A stretch of 64,000 nucleotides of DNA from Candidatus Uhrbacteria bacterium (GCA_018673485.1 JABHCP010000001.1:3512-67511); one strand, 5' to 3'. Counted from the stretch's first letter, positions 2,491 to 53,560 are shown. The notes: a model not told the origin generated them from the sequence alone. Translations and numbers: made by a program.

Positions 2491-2997
2491 CTAAAAGTTT
2501 AAAGCTTTTTTAATAATCGCTGGACTATCGACTGAGTTTATAAACTTTAGCGAATCGATTTCAGTAAGATCGATCCATTCTGCCAGGTCGGCATATTCTT
2601 TCTCCTCTTCATCAAAATTCTCTTTTGATAACTCGCCCCCGATGCGCCTGACGATAAAGTACAGAAGTGGGCAGTTCCAAAACTCGTCTTTGTGCTTTTT
2701 TGAATGTGCGGGGTGGAAAAATGAAGACTCGCAATGAATCGGCTCACCAACTTCAACCTCAAATCCAGTCTCTTCAAAAAATTCACGAATAAGCGCTTCT
2801 TGCATAGTCTCGCCCAACTCTACTCCGCCACCCGCAAAATCATACCCATCATACTGCTTTGATAGCAAAAGCTTCCCCTCTTCGATAAGCAACCCATAAA
2901 CCGACGGTCGAAACTGTAGCTTATCGGGCTCAATATCTCGAGTATTGCCGTAAATATCATGACACGTGATTTTATTCATACGTATCAATTTTATCAC
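2491..2997 (-). CDS. NUDIX hydrolase
   Basis: Nudix box GGGVELGETMQEALIREFFEETGFEV. Confidence 0.8.
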   Translation of the reverse strand: MIKLIRMNKITCHDIYGNTRDIEPDKLQFRPSVYGLLIEEGKLLLSKQYDGYDFAGGGVELGETMQEALIREFFEETGFEVEVGEPIHCESSFFHPAHSKKHKDEFWNCPLLYFIVRRIGGELSKENFDEEEKEYADLAEWIDLTEIDSLKFINSVDSPAIIKKALNF

Positions 2998-3169
2998 AAT
3001 TTTTCATTAAGGTGCCGATCGCGACCTTAATGAAAAATTTATATGCTTTGAGACAATCGAATTAAATAGATATGAAATTCTGAGAACTTCGATCTTTCCT
3101 CGTTCTAGGATAAAACACCAATAAAACTATCAAAACGCTACAATCAACGACCTGACCCCAATATTACTT

Positions 3170-26625: not shown

Positions 26626-26764
26626 TTAGTTAGAAGTATACAGTAGGCGGTTATCAGTGGCTAGGCAGTGCGGGTTTAAATTGTTTAATCGCTCGGCTCC
26701 GCCATCACTTGTTTAAAATGTTTATTTCGAAGTAAACACTTTAAACAATTTAAACATCTTAAAC

Positions 26765-26793
26765 AAAAATTAGGGCGCTAGGCCCTAATTTTT
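26765..26793 (-). terminator. rpsU terminator
   Basis: TTAGGGCgctaGCCCTAA hairpin flanked by A/T runs, immediately 3' of rpsU. Confidence 0.6.
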
Positions 26794-27053: not shown

Positions 27054-27214
27054 GTGCTTTCACCTTCCTTTCTCTGTTTGATAAGAATTACGCACGAATA
27101 GTAGCTTATTGATGCATAAATGTCAACAGTAAGGGTTTGAGTTGTTGAAGGTGTTTAAGGTGTTTATTTTGAAGTAAACATTTTAAACATTTAAACACTT
27201 TAAACCTTCCCCAT

Positions 27215-27252
27215 AAAAGCAAAAGTCCCACCCGAGGATCGCCAAGGGTGAG
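27215..27252 (-). terminator. terminator of GC-island gene A
   Basis: CACCCttggcgatcctcGGGTG stem followed by GACTTTTGCTTTT on the minus transcript; paralogous to the hairpin at 28093. Confidence 0.5.
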
Positions 27253-27274
27253 AATCGAATTGTCTACGTTGGAC

Positions 27275-28003
27275 CTAACTGCCCCAAATCGCCCTGCGCA
27301 CAGCTTCTTGCAAGGTCTTACCCTCACCATCATGTTGCCTAGACACAAGAGCTGTATCACCACCACCGTCGAGCTTCATCATGAAGGAAAACGAGTAGGT
27401 CCCATCGTCCAAGCACGACGCGATAGCGGTACGCTCAGCGAACTGCCTCCACAGGTTGGAGGGGAGCGCGCCGAGCAAACGCTGATCCTTCAAGATCGGG
27501 AAAAACCAATCCCCCATTTGGATATGCGTTGCACACAGTGGCCCAGCGGGAACGCCAGCGGTCTTGAGCTTGAATTGACAACCAGGCTGCAAGAACTCTC
27601 CCAGAGAAACGGGCTGAGCCAGCGGCACACGCACCCACGCCCGACTGGTATTGGGAACAAAGATGGCCAGGAATTTCTCAGGACCCGGGAAGGTGTTTGG
27701 CCAGATCATTGCCTGGACTACACCGTCAGGACACTGCTCGATGATCTCGATCGCATCGATGACAATTTCGTAGGACTCAAACTTGATCCAGGAGCCACCA
27801 GCGCCCAAGCCGACCATACACGTGACCGTAATGGAGACCTGAGAGCCATCAATGGACACGAGCTCTATCTCATAGATCTTGTTGCGATCCATACGAGCGT
27901 GCCCCTCATCGTCCACATCGCAGACCTGGACCTGATACACGACCTTGCGCTGAAACTGTGAAAGGAAACTGAACATCGTACAGGCTGATTCGATCTTAGT
28001 CAT
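27275..28003 (-). CDS. hypothetical protein, GC-rich islet paralogue A
   Basis: GC above 60% in a ~40% GC genome. RBS GGAGGTG lies 6 nt upstream of the ATG at 28003. Weak similarity to the adjacent gene (KIYEIELVSIDG versus TIYRRVDLVDLGG). The track ORF extends to 28063. Confidence 0.55.
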   Translation of the reverse strand: MTKIESACTMFSFLSQFQRKVVYQVQVCDVDDEGHARMDRNKIYEIELVSIDGSQVSITVTCMVGLGAGGSWIKFESYEIVIDAIEIIEQCPDGVVQAMIWPNTFPGPEKFLAIFVPNTSRAWVRVPLAQPVSLGEFLQPGCQFKLKTAGVPAGPLCATHIQMGDWFFPILKDQRLLGALPSNLWRQFAERTAIASCLDDGTYSFSFMMKLDGGGDTALVSRQHDGEGKTLQEAVRRAIWGS

Positions 28004-28092
28004 TAGCACCTCCAGGCAACTTGACCAGATGAGTTCTCCTAAACGGAGAAAGCACCTTAACAAACAATCGACTTTGCGTCAATCTTAGCCCT

Positions 28093-28129
28093 AAAAGCAA
28101 AAGTCCCCACCCGGCGATCCCGGGTGGAG
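28093..28129 (-). terminator. terminator of GC-island gene B
   Basis: CACCCGGcgatcCCGGGTG stem followed by GGACTTTTGCTTTT. Confidence 0.6.
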
Positions 28130-28167
28130 TTAGACGCTGACCTTGCGGTCTAGATTGTGAGCTCGAG

Positions 28168-29022
28168 CTACTCGTCGGCCTGCTCGAAGAGATGTCGGTA
28201 CTGCTCGACCCGAAAGAGGATGTCGGGAACGGTCAGATGAGCCCGGAGACGCTGCATGATAGTGACAGCCATGGGATCTCCACAGAGATACCCAGCGACA
28301 TCGATAGGTATGAAAATGATGTCTCGTGCGCCCTGAACGCCAGGAAGTCCCTCCTCGACATCGAACGAAAGCCGGAACTTGAAGCCACCTTCGCCAGTGC
28401 CGTCGAGGTGGTCCCAGTCCACGTTCGCGACCAAGGAGCCAACTCCCTCGCCGATACGAACGTTCGCAGCTACGAAACCACGGTTCATGCACATGCCAGT
28501 GGTGCCGGGAAGCTCGAAGATCACAGGAATCGGACAATTGTCTTCACCGCCGCCAGCGCACTGGGCCAACTCGGCCTGAGCTGCCGTCACGGCGCTATCT
28601 TCCCGACTCATCTCCGGACGCCAGTACGTACCACCGGCGACCAGCTCCATATATCCACCCATGGCAACCTGACGACGCCTCAGCAAGCCCACGTAGATCT
28701 CGCCGCTCGGGGACTTGGTGTAGAGAAGTAGCGCTGGGCCACCACCACCGGGCTCCCGATAAAGGATACCTGCGTAGCCACCCAGATCGACCAGGTCGAC
28801 GCGTCGGTAGATCGTCTTCTCAGGACTGACGAGCACGAAGCAGGCACGCCCCACGCTCCCATCCGGGTAACGCTTGACGTGAACCTCCCAGTCGCACATC
28901 CCCGACGGGATGTCAGCCATCAGATCGAGCTGCCAGGCGGGAAGCCCTGCCACGAACGGATCAGGGTGCTGCCAAAGCTCCAACTCGCTCACACCATCAG
29001 TCTGCGTAGTGTCATTGCACAT
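28168..29022 (-). CDS. hypothetical protein, GC-rich islet paralogue B
   Basis: 284 aa, about 65% GC, RBS GGAGAAAGG; unknown family. Confidence 0.55.
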   Translation of the reverse strand: MCNDTTQTDGVSELELWQHPDPFVAGLPAWQLDLMADIPSGMCDWEVHVKRYPDGSVGRACFVLVSPEKTIYRRVDLVDLGGYAGILYREPGGGGPALLLYTKSPSGEIYVGLLRRRQVAMGGYMELVAGGTYWRPEMSREDSAVTAAQAELAQCAGGGEDNCPIPVIFELPGTTGMCMNRGFVAANVRIGEGVGSLVANVDWDHLDGTGEGGFKFRLSFDVEEGLPGVQGARDIIFIPIDVAGYLCGDPMAVTIMQRLRAHLTVPDILFRVEQYRHLFEQADE

Positions 29023-29034
29023 ACCTTTCTCCGA

Positions 29035-29063
29035 TGTTCACTACGGTGAACACAGTGCTGTTC
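29035..29063. promoter_or_regulatory. operator-like overlapping palindromes upstream of GC-islet gene B
   Basis: TGTTCACtacgGTGAACAcagtgcTGTTCA: three alternating TGTTCA/TGAACA half-sites between the putative promoter and the RBS. Confidence 0.4.
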
Positions 29064-29189
29064 ATTTGATAGACCATGCTCCCTTATGGAAGTACCAGCT
29101 TTCTACCAAATATTAGCCACTTTGTCAACCCAAAAACCCGCCGTTTCCGACGGGTTTTTAAATTATTGTACTTCTATCCCCTCTTCGAC

Positions 29190-34912: not shown

Positions 34913-34917
34913 AAAAT

Positions 34918-34958
34918 GTGTCACCCCTGGCTACGACCAGGGTCCCATCAACTATCGA
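34918..34958. repeat. TGTCACCCCTGGCTACGACCAGGG hairpin repeat unit
   Basis: Same unit as at 48856 and 53365; translates as VTPGYDQGPI in track ORFs. Confidence 0.6.
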
Positions 34959-34965
34959 TCTTATC

Positions 34966-35660
34966 ATATGAAAAAACTCGCACTGCTCACACTCGCCTCT
35001 TTACTCCTTGTTGGATTTGGTTGCACGACCGATATGTCAGTCACGGAGCAAACCGATACATCAGATGAACAACTAGAAGATATAATCGATACAACTCCAG
35101 AGGTTTCAACGATCGACTCAGACAGTGACGGAATCACAGACTACGATGAGATTGAAATGTACCAGACAGACCCTAACGATACCGACAGTGATGATGACGG
35201 ATACTCAGACGGTGAAGAGGTCTCCGCTGGCTACGATCCAAACGAACCGGCAATTACAACAATTGTTGAAGAACGTGCCAACTACCAGGATACTCAAACA
35301 CAAGACGGTATGACACTAAATACAGATATAACAGTCGACCTTACAACAACAATTGACTGTGGAGCTGAAGCATCATGTTTTGATGAAAAATTTGCATTAT
35401 GTGAACCCTCAACAATGACAAGCGATGCAAGTGGATGGGTTGCCGTTAGTTATGAAATTACTGGCCCTGCAGATGAGGGCTGCGCGGTTACAATGATCTA
35501 CACAACAAATCCAAACCCTGTATGGCAAGACAAGCCACTTCACTGTGTTTATGACAATACTAAAGACTTTGAAGTAGCGATGATGGAAGCATTCGAATCT
35601 GCAATGGAAATAGATGGATACTGTTCTGGACCACTCAACGACGTATTCCACGCTGAATAA
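34966..35660 (+). CDS. lipoprotein with a TSP3-like calcium-binding repeat module
   Basis: MKKLALLTLASLLLVGFGC lipobox; DSDSDGITDYDEIEMYQTDPNDTDSDDDGYSDGEEVSAGYDPNEP. The track ORF begins at 34839 inside pth. Confidence 0.65.
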
Positions 35661-35767
35661 TTTATTCAATAATGTTTCACTAAAGGGCCGATCGGCACCT
35701 TAATGAAACATTCTGCAAAAAAGGGCCTAAATTGGCTCTTTTTTGGTTAAAATTAGCTAAATATAGG

Positions 35768-35796
35768 TTGACAAAACCCTTTTTTTATGCTATATT
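35768..35796 (+). promoter_or_regulatory. consensus sigma70-type promoter of the GC-rich cassette
   Basis: TTGACA, 17 nt spacer, TATATT; followed by a ~180 nt GC-rich structured leader (gtctcaccacccaaggaatgaccatgagac, ctaggggctcgccccctag). Confidence 0.6.
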
Positions 35797-35987
35797 TCAA
35801 TGTCTCACCACCCAAGGAATGACCATGAGACTTCCCCGCGACGGACTCCTAGGCTAGGGGCTCGCCCCCTAGTACCACATCGATGAGATCTTCTTCCTCG
35901 ACGGCTACTCGGAGATGAAGGGGCGAGCCCGCAACGGCACGCCGTCGCTTTACCGCAACTTCACCTTCACACTCTCAGGAGACCGTC

Positions 35988-36446
35988 ATGTCCTTCAACA
36001 ACCCATACGACCACAGCAGCTACTCTCGTCGCCCAAACCAGACCACCCTCTTCTTCGAGGGAGCCCTCAACCCGAGCGACGACATGCTCGAGGCCCTCGA
36101 GCGCAATGGGATCAAAGTGACGCGCTTCTTCCGGCCAGCCATCCGGCACAACCGGATCCGGTACCACAACATCGAGATCATCGCGCATCACTGGCTCTAC
36201 GGCGATGACGTGAGGCATGAGCTCGGATTCCCGTGCATACCCATGGTCCAGCTACGAGATGGCACCTGGCTCAAGCTCAACATCTACAGCGGCGCCGCCT
36301 GCGTGTGCGACCCAAATGAAGAGCTGCGAGCGTGGTACATGCGCCGCCGTGCCCTGTGCAAGGCTGGTGGCCAAATCAAGCTACCAGACTACCACGAGCC
36401 CCCACCACTGGTGCGCGAACAGCAGAGCGTAGTGTGCACCCCCTGA
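35988..36446 (+). CDS. hypothetical protein encoded by a GC-rich (~62%) horizontally acquired cassette
   Basis: 152 aa, no recognisable family; GC-rich region 35800..36510 in a ~40% GC context. Confidence 0.55.
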   Translation: MSFNNPYDHSSYSRRPNQTTLFFEGALNPSDDMLEALERNGIKVTRFFRPAIRHNRIRYHNIEIIAHHWLYGDDVRHELGFPCIPMVQLRDGTWLKLNIYSGAACVCDPNEELRAWYMRRRALCKAGGQIKLPDYHEPPPLVREQQSVVCTP

Positions 36447-36472
36447 CCCCTCCCTCACCCTCACCCCAAGGA

Positions 36473-36507
36473 CCCCCAACTTGTGGCGTGGGGGTTCTTC
36501 TTTTTTA
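36473..36507 (+). terminator. rho-independent terminator of the GC-rich cassette
   Basis: ACCCCCAacttgtggcgTGGGGGT followed by TCTTCTTTTTT. Confidence 0.65.
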
Positions 36508-36567
36508 CACAACACCCCTTGACATGCTCTCAAAAATCCAAATTTTCGTGCGTGATAAAATATATGT

Positions 36568-37665
36568 ATGATCGGAGAAGAGAATTTAGCGTGCTTAATT
36601 GCCCTTAATGAATTTCCTAAATTTGGTCCGCGCAGAATGCAGCGGTTGTTTAAGGTATTTGATACATCTCGATCGATCTTTGAATCAAACGCGACAGAAC
36701 TTCGAAATGCCGGCATTCCAGAAACTGTCGCTAAAGAGTTTATCGAATTTCGAAAGACAATTAATCTCGTCGAACTTCTTGAGCTTGTCCAAACAAATGA
36801 CATGACAGTTATTTCAATCTTCGATGAGAACTTCCCTACCCTGCTCAAAGAAATATATGACCCACCGACGTTGCTATATATAAAAGGTGAACTTCCCGAT
36901 CTATCTAATCGAAAACTGCTTGGAATCGTTGGCTCGCGTAAAGCCAGTCCGTATGGCGCGCAGGTCGCTAAAGATCTAACACAGGATATTGCCCGCGCTG
37001 GAATCATAACAGTCAGCGGGCTTGCCTATGGAATCGATGGCATCGCACACAAAGCCACAATTGATGCGAAAGGACAAACCATCGCCGTCTTAGGCTTTGG
37101 AATTCTACACGAACCAAGCTCACGAGAACAAGTAATCCAGAATCATATAATTGAAAATGGCGGGTGCATCATCAGTGAGTTCCCTCTCATGATGCACGGA
37201 GCTAAACAAAACTTCCCAATTCGAAATAGAATTATCTCAGGGATTAGTCACGGAACACTTGTAGTCGAGGCAGCAATAAAATCTGGATCGCTAATCACAG
37301 CTCGCTCTGCAATGGAACAAAACCGCGAAGTCTTTGCAGTACCCGGTCCAATAAACTCACAAACATCAGAAGGAACTAATCAGCTCATCAAAGACGGTGC
37401 ACACATGGTGACCAAGATTGAAGATATTCTCGGGCCACTCGAAATCGATCGGATAGTTGCAAGAGCCAAAACAAAAACCACCCCCCAGGGTGACACTCCA
37501 CAAGAAGATCAAATTCTCTCAATACTATCAAAACAACCAACCCACATCGACGACATCACCCGCACCACAAACCTCCCCGCCCCAACAGTCGCCAGCACAA
37601 TCTCCATCCTAGAATTAAAAAGCCTGGTACAAAATGTCGGAGGTGAGAGGTATTATTTGAATTAA
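36568..37665 (+). CDS. dprA: DNA processing protein DprA (Smf)
   Basis: LLGIVGSRKASPYGAQVAKDL Rossmann-like core and C-terminal wHTH; 365 aa. Confidence 0.9.
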   Translation: MIGEENLACLIALNEFPKFGPRRMQRLFKVFDTSRSIFESNATELRNAGIPETVAKEFIEFRKTINLVELLELVQTNDMTVISIFDENFPTLLKEIYDPPTLLYIKGELPDLSNRKLLGIVGSRKASPYGAQVAKDLTQDIARAGIITVSGLAYGIDGIAHKATIDAKGQTIAVLGFGILHEPSSREQVIQNHIIENGGCIISEFPLMMHGAKQNFPIRNRIISGISHGTLVVEAAIKSGSLITARSAMEQNREVFAVPGPINSQTSEGTNQLIKDGAHMVTKIEDILGPLEIDRIVARAKTKTTPQGDTPQEDQILSILSKQPTHIDDITRTTNLPAPTVASTISILELKSLVQNVGGERYYLN

Positions 37666-37687
37666 TAATTTAAACTTCATCCCCGTC

Positions 37688-37756
37688 TCATCATCCCCAC
37701 CTCGACGTCCCATCCCCCACTCGACGTCTCATCCCCACCCCGACGTAAGGAGGGGC
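37688..37756. repeat. three tandem ~18 bp direct repeats ending in an inverted-repeat arm upstream of the GIY-YIG gene
   Basis: tcatccccacctcgacgtc / catcccccactcgacgtc / catccccaccccgacgtaaggaggggcc. The arm CCCGACGTAAGGAGGG reappears inverted at 38094..38112. Confidence 0.6.
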
Positions 37757-37768
37757 CTCGGCTGTCTC

Positions 37769-38086
37769 ATGAAACTATCGGTCAGCCGTGAAACTCAAAC
37801 TATGCACTTCATCTATATAACAACAAACAAAAACAATTCCGTAATATACACTGGCACCACCAGTGAATTGAAACAAAGAATATATCAACATAAAGAAAAA
37901 ATGGTGGATGGATTTACGAAAAAATACAATGTCGATAAGCTAGTATACTATGAAGCAATTGAAGATCGGAATTCAGCGCTAGCTCGAGAAAAACAAATCA
38001 AAGGCTGGCGGCGAGAGAAAAAAATGCACATAGTTCTATCAATGAACCCAAATTTATTTGATTTGTACGAAACTTTAGATCAATAA
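37769..38086 (+). CDS. GIY-YIG nuclease superfamily protein (small stand-alone)
   Basis: FIYITTNKNNSVIYTGTTSELKQRIYQH GIY-YIG motif. The start could instead be the ATG at 37802 (MHFIYI). Confidence 0.8.
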   Translation: MKLSVSRETQTMHFIYITTNKNNSVIYTGTTSELKQRIYQHKEKMVDGFTKKYNVDKLVYYEAIEDRNSALAREKQIKGWRREKKMHIVLSMNPNLFDLYETLDQ

Positions 38087-38189
38087 GTTTTTAGGTCCCT
38101 CCTTACGTCGGGATGGGTAACTGCTAATACCACTAAGCATTGTGAACTACCTACTGCATTCCTTCACAATATGATACATTGTAAATCCT

Positions 38190-48845: not shown

Positions 48846-48855
48846 AATTTTTTAT

Positions 48856-48941
48856 GTGTCACCCCTGGCCACGACCAGGGGTCTATCACTCTTGCGAATT
48901 CGATAGTCGATGGATCCCGGCTCTACGGCCGGGATGACAGA
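48856..48941. repeat. composite hairpin repeat (TGTCACCCCTGGCCACGACCAGGGG + TCGATGGATCCCGGCTCnnnGGCCGGGATGACA)
   Basis: The same two units recur at 53360..53440 and 53500..53555. Confidence 0.7.
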
Positions 48942-53269: not shown

Positions 53270-53560
53270 GAATGTTTAAAGTGTTTAAGTGTCTAAAATG
53301 TTTAAATGTTTATGGGGTTTAGTTTACCTGTTTGCAGTAATTTGCTCAAGATCGTCACCATTTGTCACCCCTGGCTACGACCAGGGGCCCATCAATAAAT
53401 CGAACTCGATAATCGATGGATCCCGGCTCGAAGGCCGGGATGACACAGGCACAATTTATGTGTCATTCCTGCGAAAGCAGGAACCCATCATTACCGTGAG
53501 CTCGATCGAATTTCGATAATCGATGGATCCCGGCTCGGGGGCCGGGATGACAGATTATAC
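53270..53560. repeat. repeat-dense intergenic block (GTTTAAA repeats, TGTCACCCCTGG hairpin unit, two GGATCCCGGCTC..GGCCGGGATGACA units, one GTCATTCCTGCGAAAGCAGGAAC unit)
   Basis: Units match 48856..48941 and 34918..34958. Track ORF 53289..53519 is a repeat translation containing the SFLRKQEP motif. Confidence 0.7.

Follow-up and report, generated by a model that had tools for sequence, protein, structure and literature searches.

The DNA between the genes of a surface protein and DprA, at positions 35768–36506 of a 64-kb stretch from a metagenome-assembled genome of Candidatus Uhrbacteria (this whole stretch is referred to as the window), contains a cassette in which a predicted promoter, a leader of 185 nt, an open reading frame (ORF) of 152 aa named here as ORF152 and a predicted terminator follow each other on the plus strand (Table 1). 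The genes at this locus are arranged as der, pth, surface protein, cassette, dprA, folC and topA. The left neighbour encodes a TSP3-repeat protein as per Pfam and has a lipoprotein-type signal at its start when judged by eye, and the right neighbour was assigned to DprA by Pfam, in agreement with a preliminary description of this DNA that had placed the unit between a lipoprotein gene and dprA. The GC content rises over ~35800–36500 and was found to be 0.60–0.61 over 35850–36450 as compared to ~0.43 in the flanks and 44% in the genome, which supports a foreign composition of the unit that had been described as a GC-rich insertion. The sequence spanning 35600–36700, or the part of it covered by the respective contig, was 100% identical in contigs of at least 10 independent ENA/JGI assemblies, and therefore the cassette is not a chimera or an assembly artefact. 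Thus, the anatomy of a self-contained promoter-ORF-terminator unit, as described earlier, is present in this genome.

The putative promoter has TTGACA and TATATT separated by 17 nt at 35768–35796 together with an extended −10 TG, and it matches the sigma-70 consensus at 11 of 12 positions. When both strands of the full 64 kb were scanned, this was the single site with at least 11 of the 12 positions matching, and hence the earlier view of a textbook sigma-70 promoter that is rare in the window was upheld. From this consensus we infer that the module functions as a promoter, and the transcription start was predicted at ~35800–35804. The region next to ORF152 on the 3′ side contains a hairpin at 36457–36495 with a folding energy of −20.3 kcal/mol, which is followed by TTCTTCTTTTTT. 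A hairpin with a U tract is what the preliminary description had called a strong terminator, and such an activity of this module is expected from its sequence. A simple terminator scan did not pick up the hairpin after ORF152 because of the loop and mismatch rules of that scan. The core pattern of this terminator occurred once in the window, for a chance expectation of 0.

Table 1. Features of the cassette and of its borders; positions are counted in the window.
Feature	Position	Strand	Details
Upstream terminator hairpin (predicted)	35716–35745	+	Belongs to the surface-protein gene; CAAAAAAGGGCC..GGCTCTTTTTTG; inverted repeat I4; left edge of the variable site
Promoter module (predicted)	35768–35805	+	−35 TTGACA and −10 TATATT (TG-extended) with 17 nt of AT-rich spacer between them; TTGTC/TGTCT motif conserved in the initial transcribed sequence
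Shine-Dalgarno sequence and upstream ORF	35814–35857	+	AAGGA Shine-Dalgarno; ATG at 35819 or 35825; MTMRLPRDGLLG; stop TAG at 35855
Frame A, putative decayed coding fragment	35825–35987	+	Codons at position mod 3 = 2; in-frame TAGs at 35855 and 35870; no further stop before ORF152
GC hairpin	35853–35873	+	CTAGGGG-CTCGC-CCCCTAG; 8 bp, 5-nt loop; −13.5 kcal/mol, z = −1.9; no U tract
Shine-Dalgarno sequence and ORF152	35977–36446	+	AGGAGA Shine-Dalgarno at 35977–35982; 5-nt spacing; ORF at 35988–36446
Terminator module (predicted)	36447–36506	+	C-rich tract CTCACCCTCACCCC; hairpin GGACCCCCA..TGGGGGTTC or alternative pairing 36457–36495; U-rich tail
Host backbone resumes	36503–36567	+	dprA upstream region; collinear BLAST match to L004 5927–7069 begins at 36503

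ORF152 corresponds to HN358_05010 in NCBI and ends with TGA. The GC content at its first, second and third codon positions was 0.60, 0.42 and 0.80, respectively, and the third positions are occupied by C (.54), G (.26), A (.13) and T (.07). This pattern was absent from the alternative frames and from the minus-strand ORF, and the latter, an 83-aa ORF called by some gene callers, was dismissed on its codon-position GC. A word-indexed protein search with ORF152 returned the self match alone. The exhaustive HMMER search among 1.84 billion representatives produced a single true homologue (P0002) with 49% identity over 85 residues. A third family member was recognised in a relative (L006), and the search with a three-member profile then added P0008 and P0009. 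The unnamed ORF152 family thus comprises P0001, P0002, P0007, P0008 and P0009, with the homologues coming from related small-genome contigs; three of the members are present in the metagenome JGI 3300072015. The pairwise E-values for the ORF152 homologues were 3e-23 and 9e-08, and a profile made of the four other members, with ORF152 left out, matched ORF152 at E = 7e-26. The ratio of non-synonymous to synonymous substitutions (dN/dS) between the P0008 and P0009 genes was 0.09. The profile match and the dN/dS value together indicate a small family of proteins that is new and evolves under purifying selection. The 152-aa ORF proposed earlier is therefore a gene by its third-position GC (GC3), its homologues and its dN/dS, and the poor coding potential that had been considered as a sign against the cassette was not found.

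The family members are 148–166 aa long and the alignment of ORF152 with its homologues begins at residue 2. Because of this, the ATG at 35988 was taken as the true start and the N-terminus as complete. A conserved C-terminal domain of ~85 aa (residues 59–143) with the pattern YH..WL.G.D..LG..P..QL.DG.W....CD..E..W..RR..L..AG characterises the family, and ORF152 fits it. The protein had been described as having no recognisable motifs, and no match to ORF152 was obtained in Pfam, PHROGs, PADLOC, NCBIfam or the PDB sequences. The giant cadherin-repeat proteins (P0003–P0006) recovered by HMMER with query residues 18–60 were judged as repeat-summed artefacts, because Pfam Cadherin_3 misses ORF152 and this region is not conserved within the family. 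Designed ankyrin proteins matched the family profile weakly (best E = 0.0013), and this match is not supported by the AlphaFold2 (AF2) model, in which the N-terminal half has low confidence. The AF2 model built with two sequences was unusable (pLDDT 42). With five sequences, the C-terminal domain was modelled with moderate confidence (pLDDT 75–87) as four strands and a long helix. Foldseek comparison of this domain with PDB and BFVD yielded nothing at E < 0.07. In our reading, the product of ORF152 is a small protein that is soluble and combines a conserved domain rich in beta strands with a helix. For its role, we could offer a guess of low confidence, namely a conflict or niche-specific accessory function.

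The content of the same site in other genomes was compared in relatives found by a DprA search, with one genome taken per species. The closest relative (L004) has a DprA with 76% identity, and its collinear backbone is 71–78% identical to the window at the nucleotide level. This contig (CAYVLY010000001.1) is collinear with the window for more than 10 kb at 71–80% nucleotide identity, and its title of "uncultured Gammaproteobacteria bacterium" is probably wrong. The gene order in L004 is der-pth-surface protein-[X]-dprA-folC as in the window, and X consists of GC-rich ORFans of 173 and 322 aa that have no similarity to ORF152. These ORFans are organised as tandem units, in which a 23-nt repeat (96%) and a 37-nt promoter repeat (78%) are located ahead of each ORF. 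The 23-nt repeat is a copy of the terminator of the upstream gene, and cassette 1 has one copy on either side. Each ORF is in turn followed by a terminator module, in which 22 nt are 100% and a further 22 nt 82% identical, and the terminator module of ORF152 is 81–82% identical to the sequences after both of these unrelated cargo ORFs. Furthermore, the L004 promoter P1 (TTGACAATGCAGTTTTTTTATGCTAAATT) is a clear counterpart of the window promoter (TTGACAAAACCCTTTTTTTATGCTATATT).

L006 is a more distant relative, with a DprA of 50% identity, and its interval between pth and dprA is also GC-rich. A distant homologue of ORF152 and a convergent ORF of 96 aa are located there, each behind a near-identical promoter, TTGACAAAAGTGGTTATTT[A/G]TGATATATT. 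In L085 and L090, the ORF152 family was found at a different locus, where a terminator lies between the family gene and one or two small GC-rich paralogous ORFs, and these small ORFs follow a TTGACA-17-TATTAT promoter. The promoter architecture of the window was therefore seen ahead of GC-rich cargo twice each in L004 and L006 and also in L085, and among the promoter matches of at least 11/12 at the loci examined, all but one precede DNA of 0.54–0.60 GC. The GC3 of the cargo ORFs from four lineages was 0.57–0.80 as compared to 0.30–0.51 for the host genes, except for one gene of a type II secretion system ATPase (0.56). L004 and L006 carry different GC-rich cargo just upstream of dprA, contrary to what a cassette of normal GC kept at this locus in all relatives would have given. 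The small ORFs directly upstream of P0008 and P0009 belong to a second dark-matter family of 105–119 aa (L085 5137–5887, L089 and L090 5458–5775), which has the C-terminal motif G(Y/M)(I/M/F).F(V/M/L)D....K(V/L)Y and is present in one or two copies, the number varying between strains.

A second GC-rich island of 0.54–0.62 GC was found in the window on the minus strand at 27209–29126, between hisS and rpsU. Two promoter-ORFan-terminator units are located there in tandem, one with an ORF of 284 aa (28168–29022) and the other with an ORF of ~242 aa (27275–28003). These units end in related terminators with GGGTGGGACTTTTGCTTTT, which make a terminator type of their own. The 284-aa protein had no homologue among 5.8 billion proteins.

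The leader had been described as a structured RNA, and a riboswitch, an RNA thermometer or an attenuator had been suggested for it. We found that one of its frames, referred to as frame A, which differs from that of ORF152, has a third-position GC of 0.83–0.90 across 35820–35984 in sliding windows, and in the same type of analysis the periodicity signal passes to the frame of ORF152 at ~35970–35990. The GC content at the three codon positions of frame A was 0.57, 0.44 and 0.80, and its third bases (C.56, G.24, A.13, T.07) are nearly identical to those of ORF152. The third-base composition of ORF152, frame A and the second cargo of L004 was near-identical, with C.51–.56, G.24–.26, A.13–.15 and T.07–.08. 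Because of this strong codon periodicity and of the third-position composition in common with ORF152, the leader was considered as coding-derived DNA. Frame A opens with the ATG at 35819/35825, for which the AAGGA sequence would be the Shine-Dalgarno. The two in-frame TAGs were taken as genuine stops since TAG, the commonest stop in the window, ends 14 of the 33 long ORFs; both of them fall inside the stable GC hairpin of the leader. Neither the ORF152 family nor the small ORFs that precede P0008 and P0009 in L085 and L090 showed detectable homology to frame A, which ranked among shuffled controls in both comparisons. A DNA repeat (D2, 35872/36161, 77%) was therefore treated as chance. On the simplest reading, the leader would be what is left of the 5′ part of a different GC-rich cargo gene, one that belonged to the same compositional pool and is now dead through the two TAG stops and the loss of its 3′ end. 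This remnant was probably left at the site by cargo replacement or fusion. A GC-rich "structured leader" picked up in genome scans can thus be a dead gene and not a riboswitch, and such scans should be read with this caution.

The alternative of a leader that controls ORF152 in cis as a functional regulatory RNA (riboswitch, thermometer or a translational switch coupled to the upstream ORF) was weighed against these findings and appears quite unlikely. It starts from real features. The short upstream ORF claimed earlier is present (MTMRLPRDGLLG* at 35819–35857) with a good Shine-Dalgarno (SD) sequence, and of the two stable hairpins named for the leader, the GC hairpin (−13.5 kcal/mol) stood, whereas gtctca..tgagac was negligible (−3.2 kcal/mol, z = 0.05). 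The core of the GC hairpin (35858–35868) is perfectly complementary to 35920–35930 (inverted repeat I6, 11 nt, 100%). In the predicted ensemble, the SD of ORF152 is paired with 35846–35850 at a probability of ~0.99 and this helix is kept in the centroid structure, so in one form of this alternative the translation of the upstream ORF would melt an anti-SD:SD helix between 35840–35850 and 35977–35987. In these respects, the leader resembles the leader-peptide attenuators and SD-sequestering riboregulators, which have an upstream ORF with SD, a stable hairpin and a long-range helix over the SD of the main ORF. Unlike them, it has no terminator/antiterminator pair, no conservation and no excess of structure, and it carries the codon signature of decayed coding DNA. 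The GC hairpin is not an intrinsic attenuator because it lacks a U tract. An Rfam scan of the leader at permissive thresholds returned noise alone (E > 1), the predicted fold had z = −1.89 with 7 of the 200 shuffles folding equally well, and the occlusion of the SD was matched or exceeded by 13% of dinucleotide-shuffled leaders. In L006 and L085, the 5′ untranslated regions of the homologous cassettes are short and nothing like the leader of the window, the available copies of the leader are all identical and hence offer no covariation, and the codon periodicity shows that the sequence evolved as protein-coding DNA. A structured non-coding RNA made of the whole cassette was also rejected as its z was −1.84 and the sequence is protein-coding. 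The other possibility, that frame A and ORF152 form one gene expressed by read-through of the TAGs and a programmed +1 frameshift near 35985, or appear as two through sequencing errors, would account for the codon bias common to both segments and for the open end of frame A ahead of the ORF152 start. It is highly improbable, as the stop to be read through is the most frequent one in the window, the sequence is the same across at least 10 assemblies, ORF152 has its own well-spaced SD and a complete N-terminus for a family of 148–166 aa, and frame A is not similar to this family.

Phage morons, as reportedly described by Juhala, Hendrix and others (Juhala et al, 2000), are autonomous promoter-gene-terminator units inserted between conserved phage genes. 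The cassette is like a moron in having its own sigma-70-type promoter and factor-independent terminator (both by sequence) around a single accessory ORF, in its deviant composition (GC of 0.60 vs 0.43 and GC3 of 0.80 vs 0.36–0.40 in the neighbours) and in its location, which is flanked by two conserved genes and varies in content among related genomes. It is unlike a moron in that it lies in a bacterial chromosome among housekeeping genes with PHROGs and viral searches being negative, its promoter and terminator are conserved modules common to unrelated cargo, and an empty site was not encountered in any relative. The second system compared was the PeSL cassettes of T4-type phages, which place conserved strong sigma-70 promoters and stem-loop terminators around the ORFans of hyperplastic regions; recombination between the promoter/stem-loop repeats drives modular shuffling and yields mini-circles (Arbiol et al, 2010; PMC2839356). 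As in PeSLs, the promoter module is located upstream of ORFans, is repeated in L004 (37 nt, 78%) and in L006 (the near-identical pair) and is shared across species. Tandem units with shared regulatory repeats, GC stem-loop terminators and ORFans occur in a hypervariable region, and the way in which close relatives differ by inserted and replaced cargo would fit recombination between regulatory repeats. The PeSL stem-loop, however, overlaps or abuts the promoter in one compact motif, whereas the Uhrbacteria modules are separate; their conserved G/C-tract stem-loops are at the 3′ end of the preceding unit, 20–70 nt from the next promoter, and a weak AT-rich inverted repeat (I2) is the only repeat that spans the −35 and −10 of the window promoter. 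The host also differs, being the chromosome of a candidate-phyla bacterium and not a T4-type phage, and the Uhrbacteria cargo is compositionally foreign (GC3 of 0.6–0.8 vs 0.35–0.4). Integron gene cassettes are similar in being small single-ORF units, mostly of unknown function, arranged in tandem at one site with hairpin-forming 3′ ends. In contrast to integron cassettes, each Uhrbacteria unit has its own promoter and the units are at scattered intergenic sites; the attC cores RYYYAAC/GTTRRRY were absent from the terminator modules by inspection, and no integrase or attI was found nearby. The modular, variable and GC-rich cassette architecture seen across Uhrbacteria species may be best described as being of the kind of morons and PeSLs in an unexpected host.

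We consider it on balance probable that this locus carries a moron-type or PeSL-like modular cassette for the expression of accessory genes, situated in a chromosomal hotspot of Candidatus Uhrbacteria. In such a cassette, a strong host-type sigma-70 promoter (TTGACA-17-TGnTATATT) would drive constitutive transcription of the GC-rich insert, ORF152 would be translated from its own AGGAGA SD, and the strong C-rich intrinsic terminator would insulate dprA, which would use its own extended −10 promoter. The cargo would be replaced and stacked at the hotspot and exchanged between genomes, likely by recombination between shared promoter and terminator modules, a route already proposed for the PeSL cassettes. 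The cargo would be drawn from a pool of GC3-rich genes with C-ending codons that is distinct from the host chromosome.

Several observations weigh against this interpretation. The identity of the terminator to the L004 sequences (81–82%) is slightly above that of the backbone (71–78%). The promoter may be native instead of being part of a mobile module, because the tRNA-Met and rpsU promoters within the window have the same style. The cargo proteins are all dark matter and had no match in the viral collections IMG/VR, INPHARED and PHROGs, and no recombinase, phage gene or other mobility gene was found nearby. The site is filled by other GC-rich cargo in L004 and L006, and a relative with the site empty was not seen. 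Similarly, presence/absence polymorphism was not found in the population, as the contigs with exact DprA and Pth were all 100% identical across the cassette, and mobility is for this reason read from the differences between species alone.

Two other origins of the cassette were considered along with the modular one. ORF152 might be a native Uhrbacteria gene inherited vertically, whose high GC3 is kept up locally through processes such as selection or, at a recombination hotspot, GC-biased gene conversion. The family member at the same pth-dprA locus in the distant L006 speaks for this; its GC3 is still 0.69 despite DprA being 50% identical, which disfavours a single ancient transfer since amelioration would be expected by now. 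The promoter of host type and the origin of every homologue from similar small-genome contigs also fit a native gene. On the other hand, the site in the closer relative L004 is occupied by unrelated cargo and contains no member of the family, the L085/L090 lineage has it at an entirely different locus, the dead frame A fragment is a sign of cargo turnover, and several unrelated ORFans have the same unusual codon bias, so that a native origin is unlikely. Still less probable is that a prophage or plasmid of candidate-phyla bacteria left the cassette behind, as a classical phage moron, on its excision or decay. The promoter-gene-terminator layout and deviant composition of the cassette would fit the description of a moron, and ORFan cargo with GC-rich terminators is like that of high-GC phages, one IMG/VR contig having a similar hairpin. 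Against it, zero phage genes were found within 10 kb on either side and the neighbours are all housekeeping genes; PHROGs, IMG/VR and INPHARED were negative for ORF152, for the DNA and for the proteins of the second island. The protein and pattern scans of IMG/VR, blastn against INPHARED and tblastn against PLSDB were negative or gave generic terminators in unrelated contigs, and the few viral pattern matches are of this generic type.

Candidate-phyla bacteria have tiny streamlined genomes, and gene acquisition and expression are poorly understood in them. Here, one chromosomal site was found to carry, in different species, unrelated orphan genes of foreign composition that come in ready-made expression units, which points to a cheap, modular turnover of accessory genes in these bacteria. 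Until now, turnover of this kind has been described mainly from phage genomes. Extending the modular cassette further, it is possible, though we put this forward tentatively, that Uhrbacteria and perhaps other candidate-phyla bacteria run a chromosomal gene shuffling analogous to PeSLs. In this scheme, the promoter and C-rich terminator modules would serve as recombination handles, orphan genes would be loaded, stacked and swapped at fixed intergenic hotspots (upstream of dprA; hisS-rpsU), and the GC3-rich pool would reside on an unseen phage, plasmid or mini-circle. If this were true, the persistence of cargo GC3 without amelioration across deep lineages would be the signature of the pool or of the recombination process.

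The sequences bordering the cassette were also analysed. In the dprA upstream region, which is conserved with L004, a solitary TTGACA (36520–36525) is located 31 nt from a TG-extended −10, TGATAAAAT (36553–36561). Because this −10 ends 6 nt ahead of the dprA ATG, the dprA mRNA may be leaderless, and dprA may have its own extended −10 promoter. A stand-alone GIY-YIG nuclease-domain gene of 105 aa (37769–38086, 34% GC; region 37643–38188) lies between dprA and folC in the window. It is missing in L004, where dprA and folC overlap, making a further indel beside the cassette hotspot.

On the left side, the fold of 35660–35750 had z = −6.4. An AT-rich long hairpin, with arms at 35661–35691 and 35692–35722, is located just past the surface-protein gene, and the presence of an ~80% similar copy near 2989–3039 of the window suggests that it may be a small repeated palindromic element. 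In some contigs (L001 1–33, and L103/L105 downstream of pth), the identical cassette or pth stands next to a different upstream gene and not the TSP3-repeat gene; since some strain contigs carry another upstream gene, the surface-protein gene beside the hotspot also appears to be variable in the population. The signal-peptide region of the surface protein is encoded by a stretch of ~36 nt at the beginning of its gene (34916–34951), which recurs at 48854–48888 and 53360–53395 with 89–94% identity. Near the second island, an AT-rich repeat of ~50 nt is present in two copies (26710–26770 and 27150–27210) flanking rpsU, the gene of S21, with a further fragment near 26670–26690. These repeats are built of GTTTAAA/GTTTAAAC-like units and contain an internal hairpin, GTTTACTTC.AAATAAAC.

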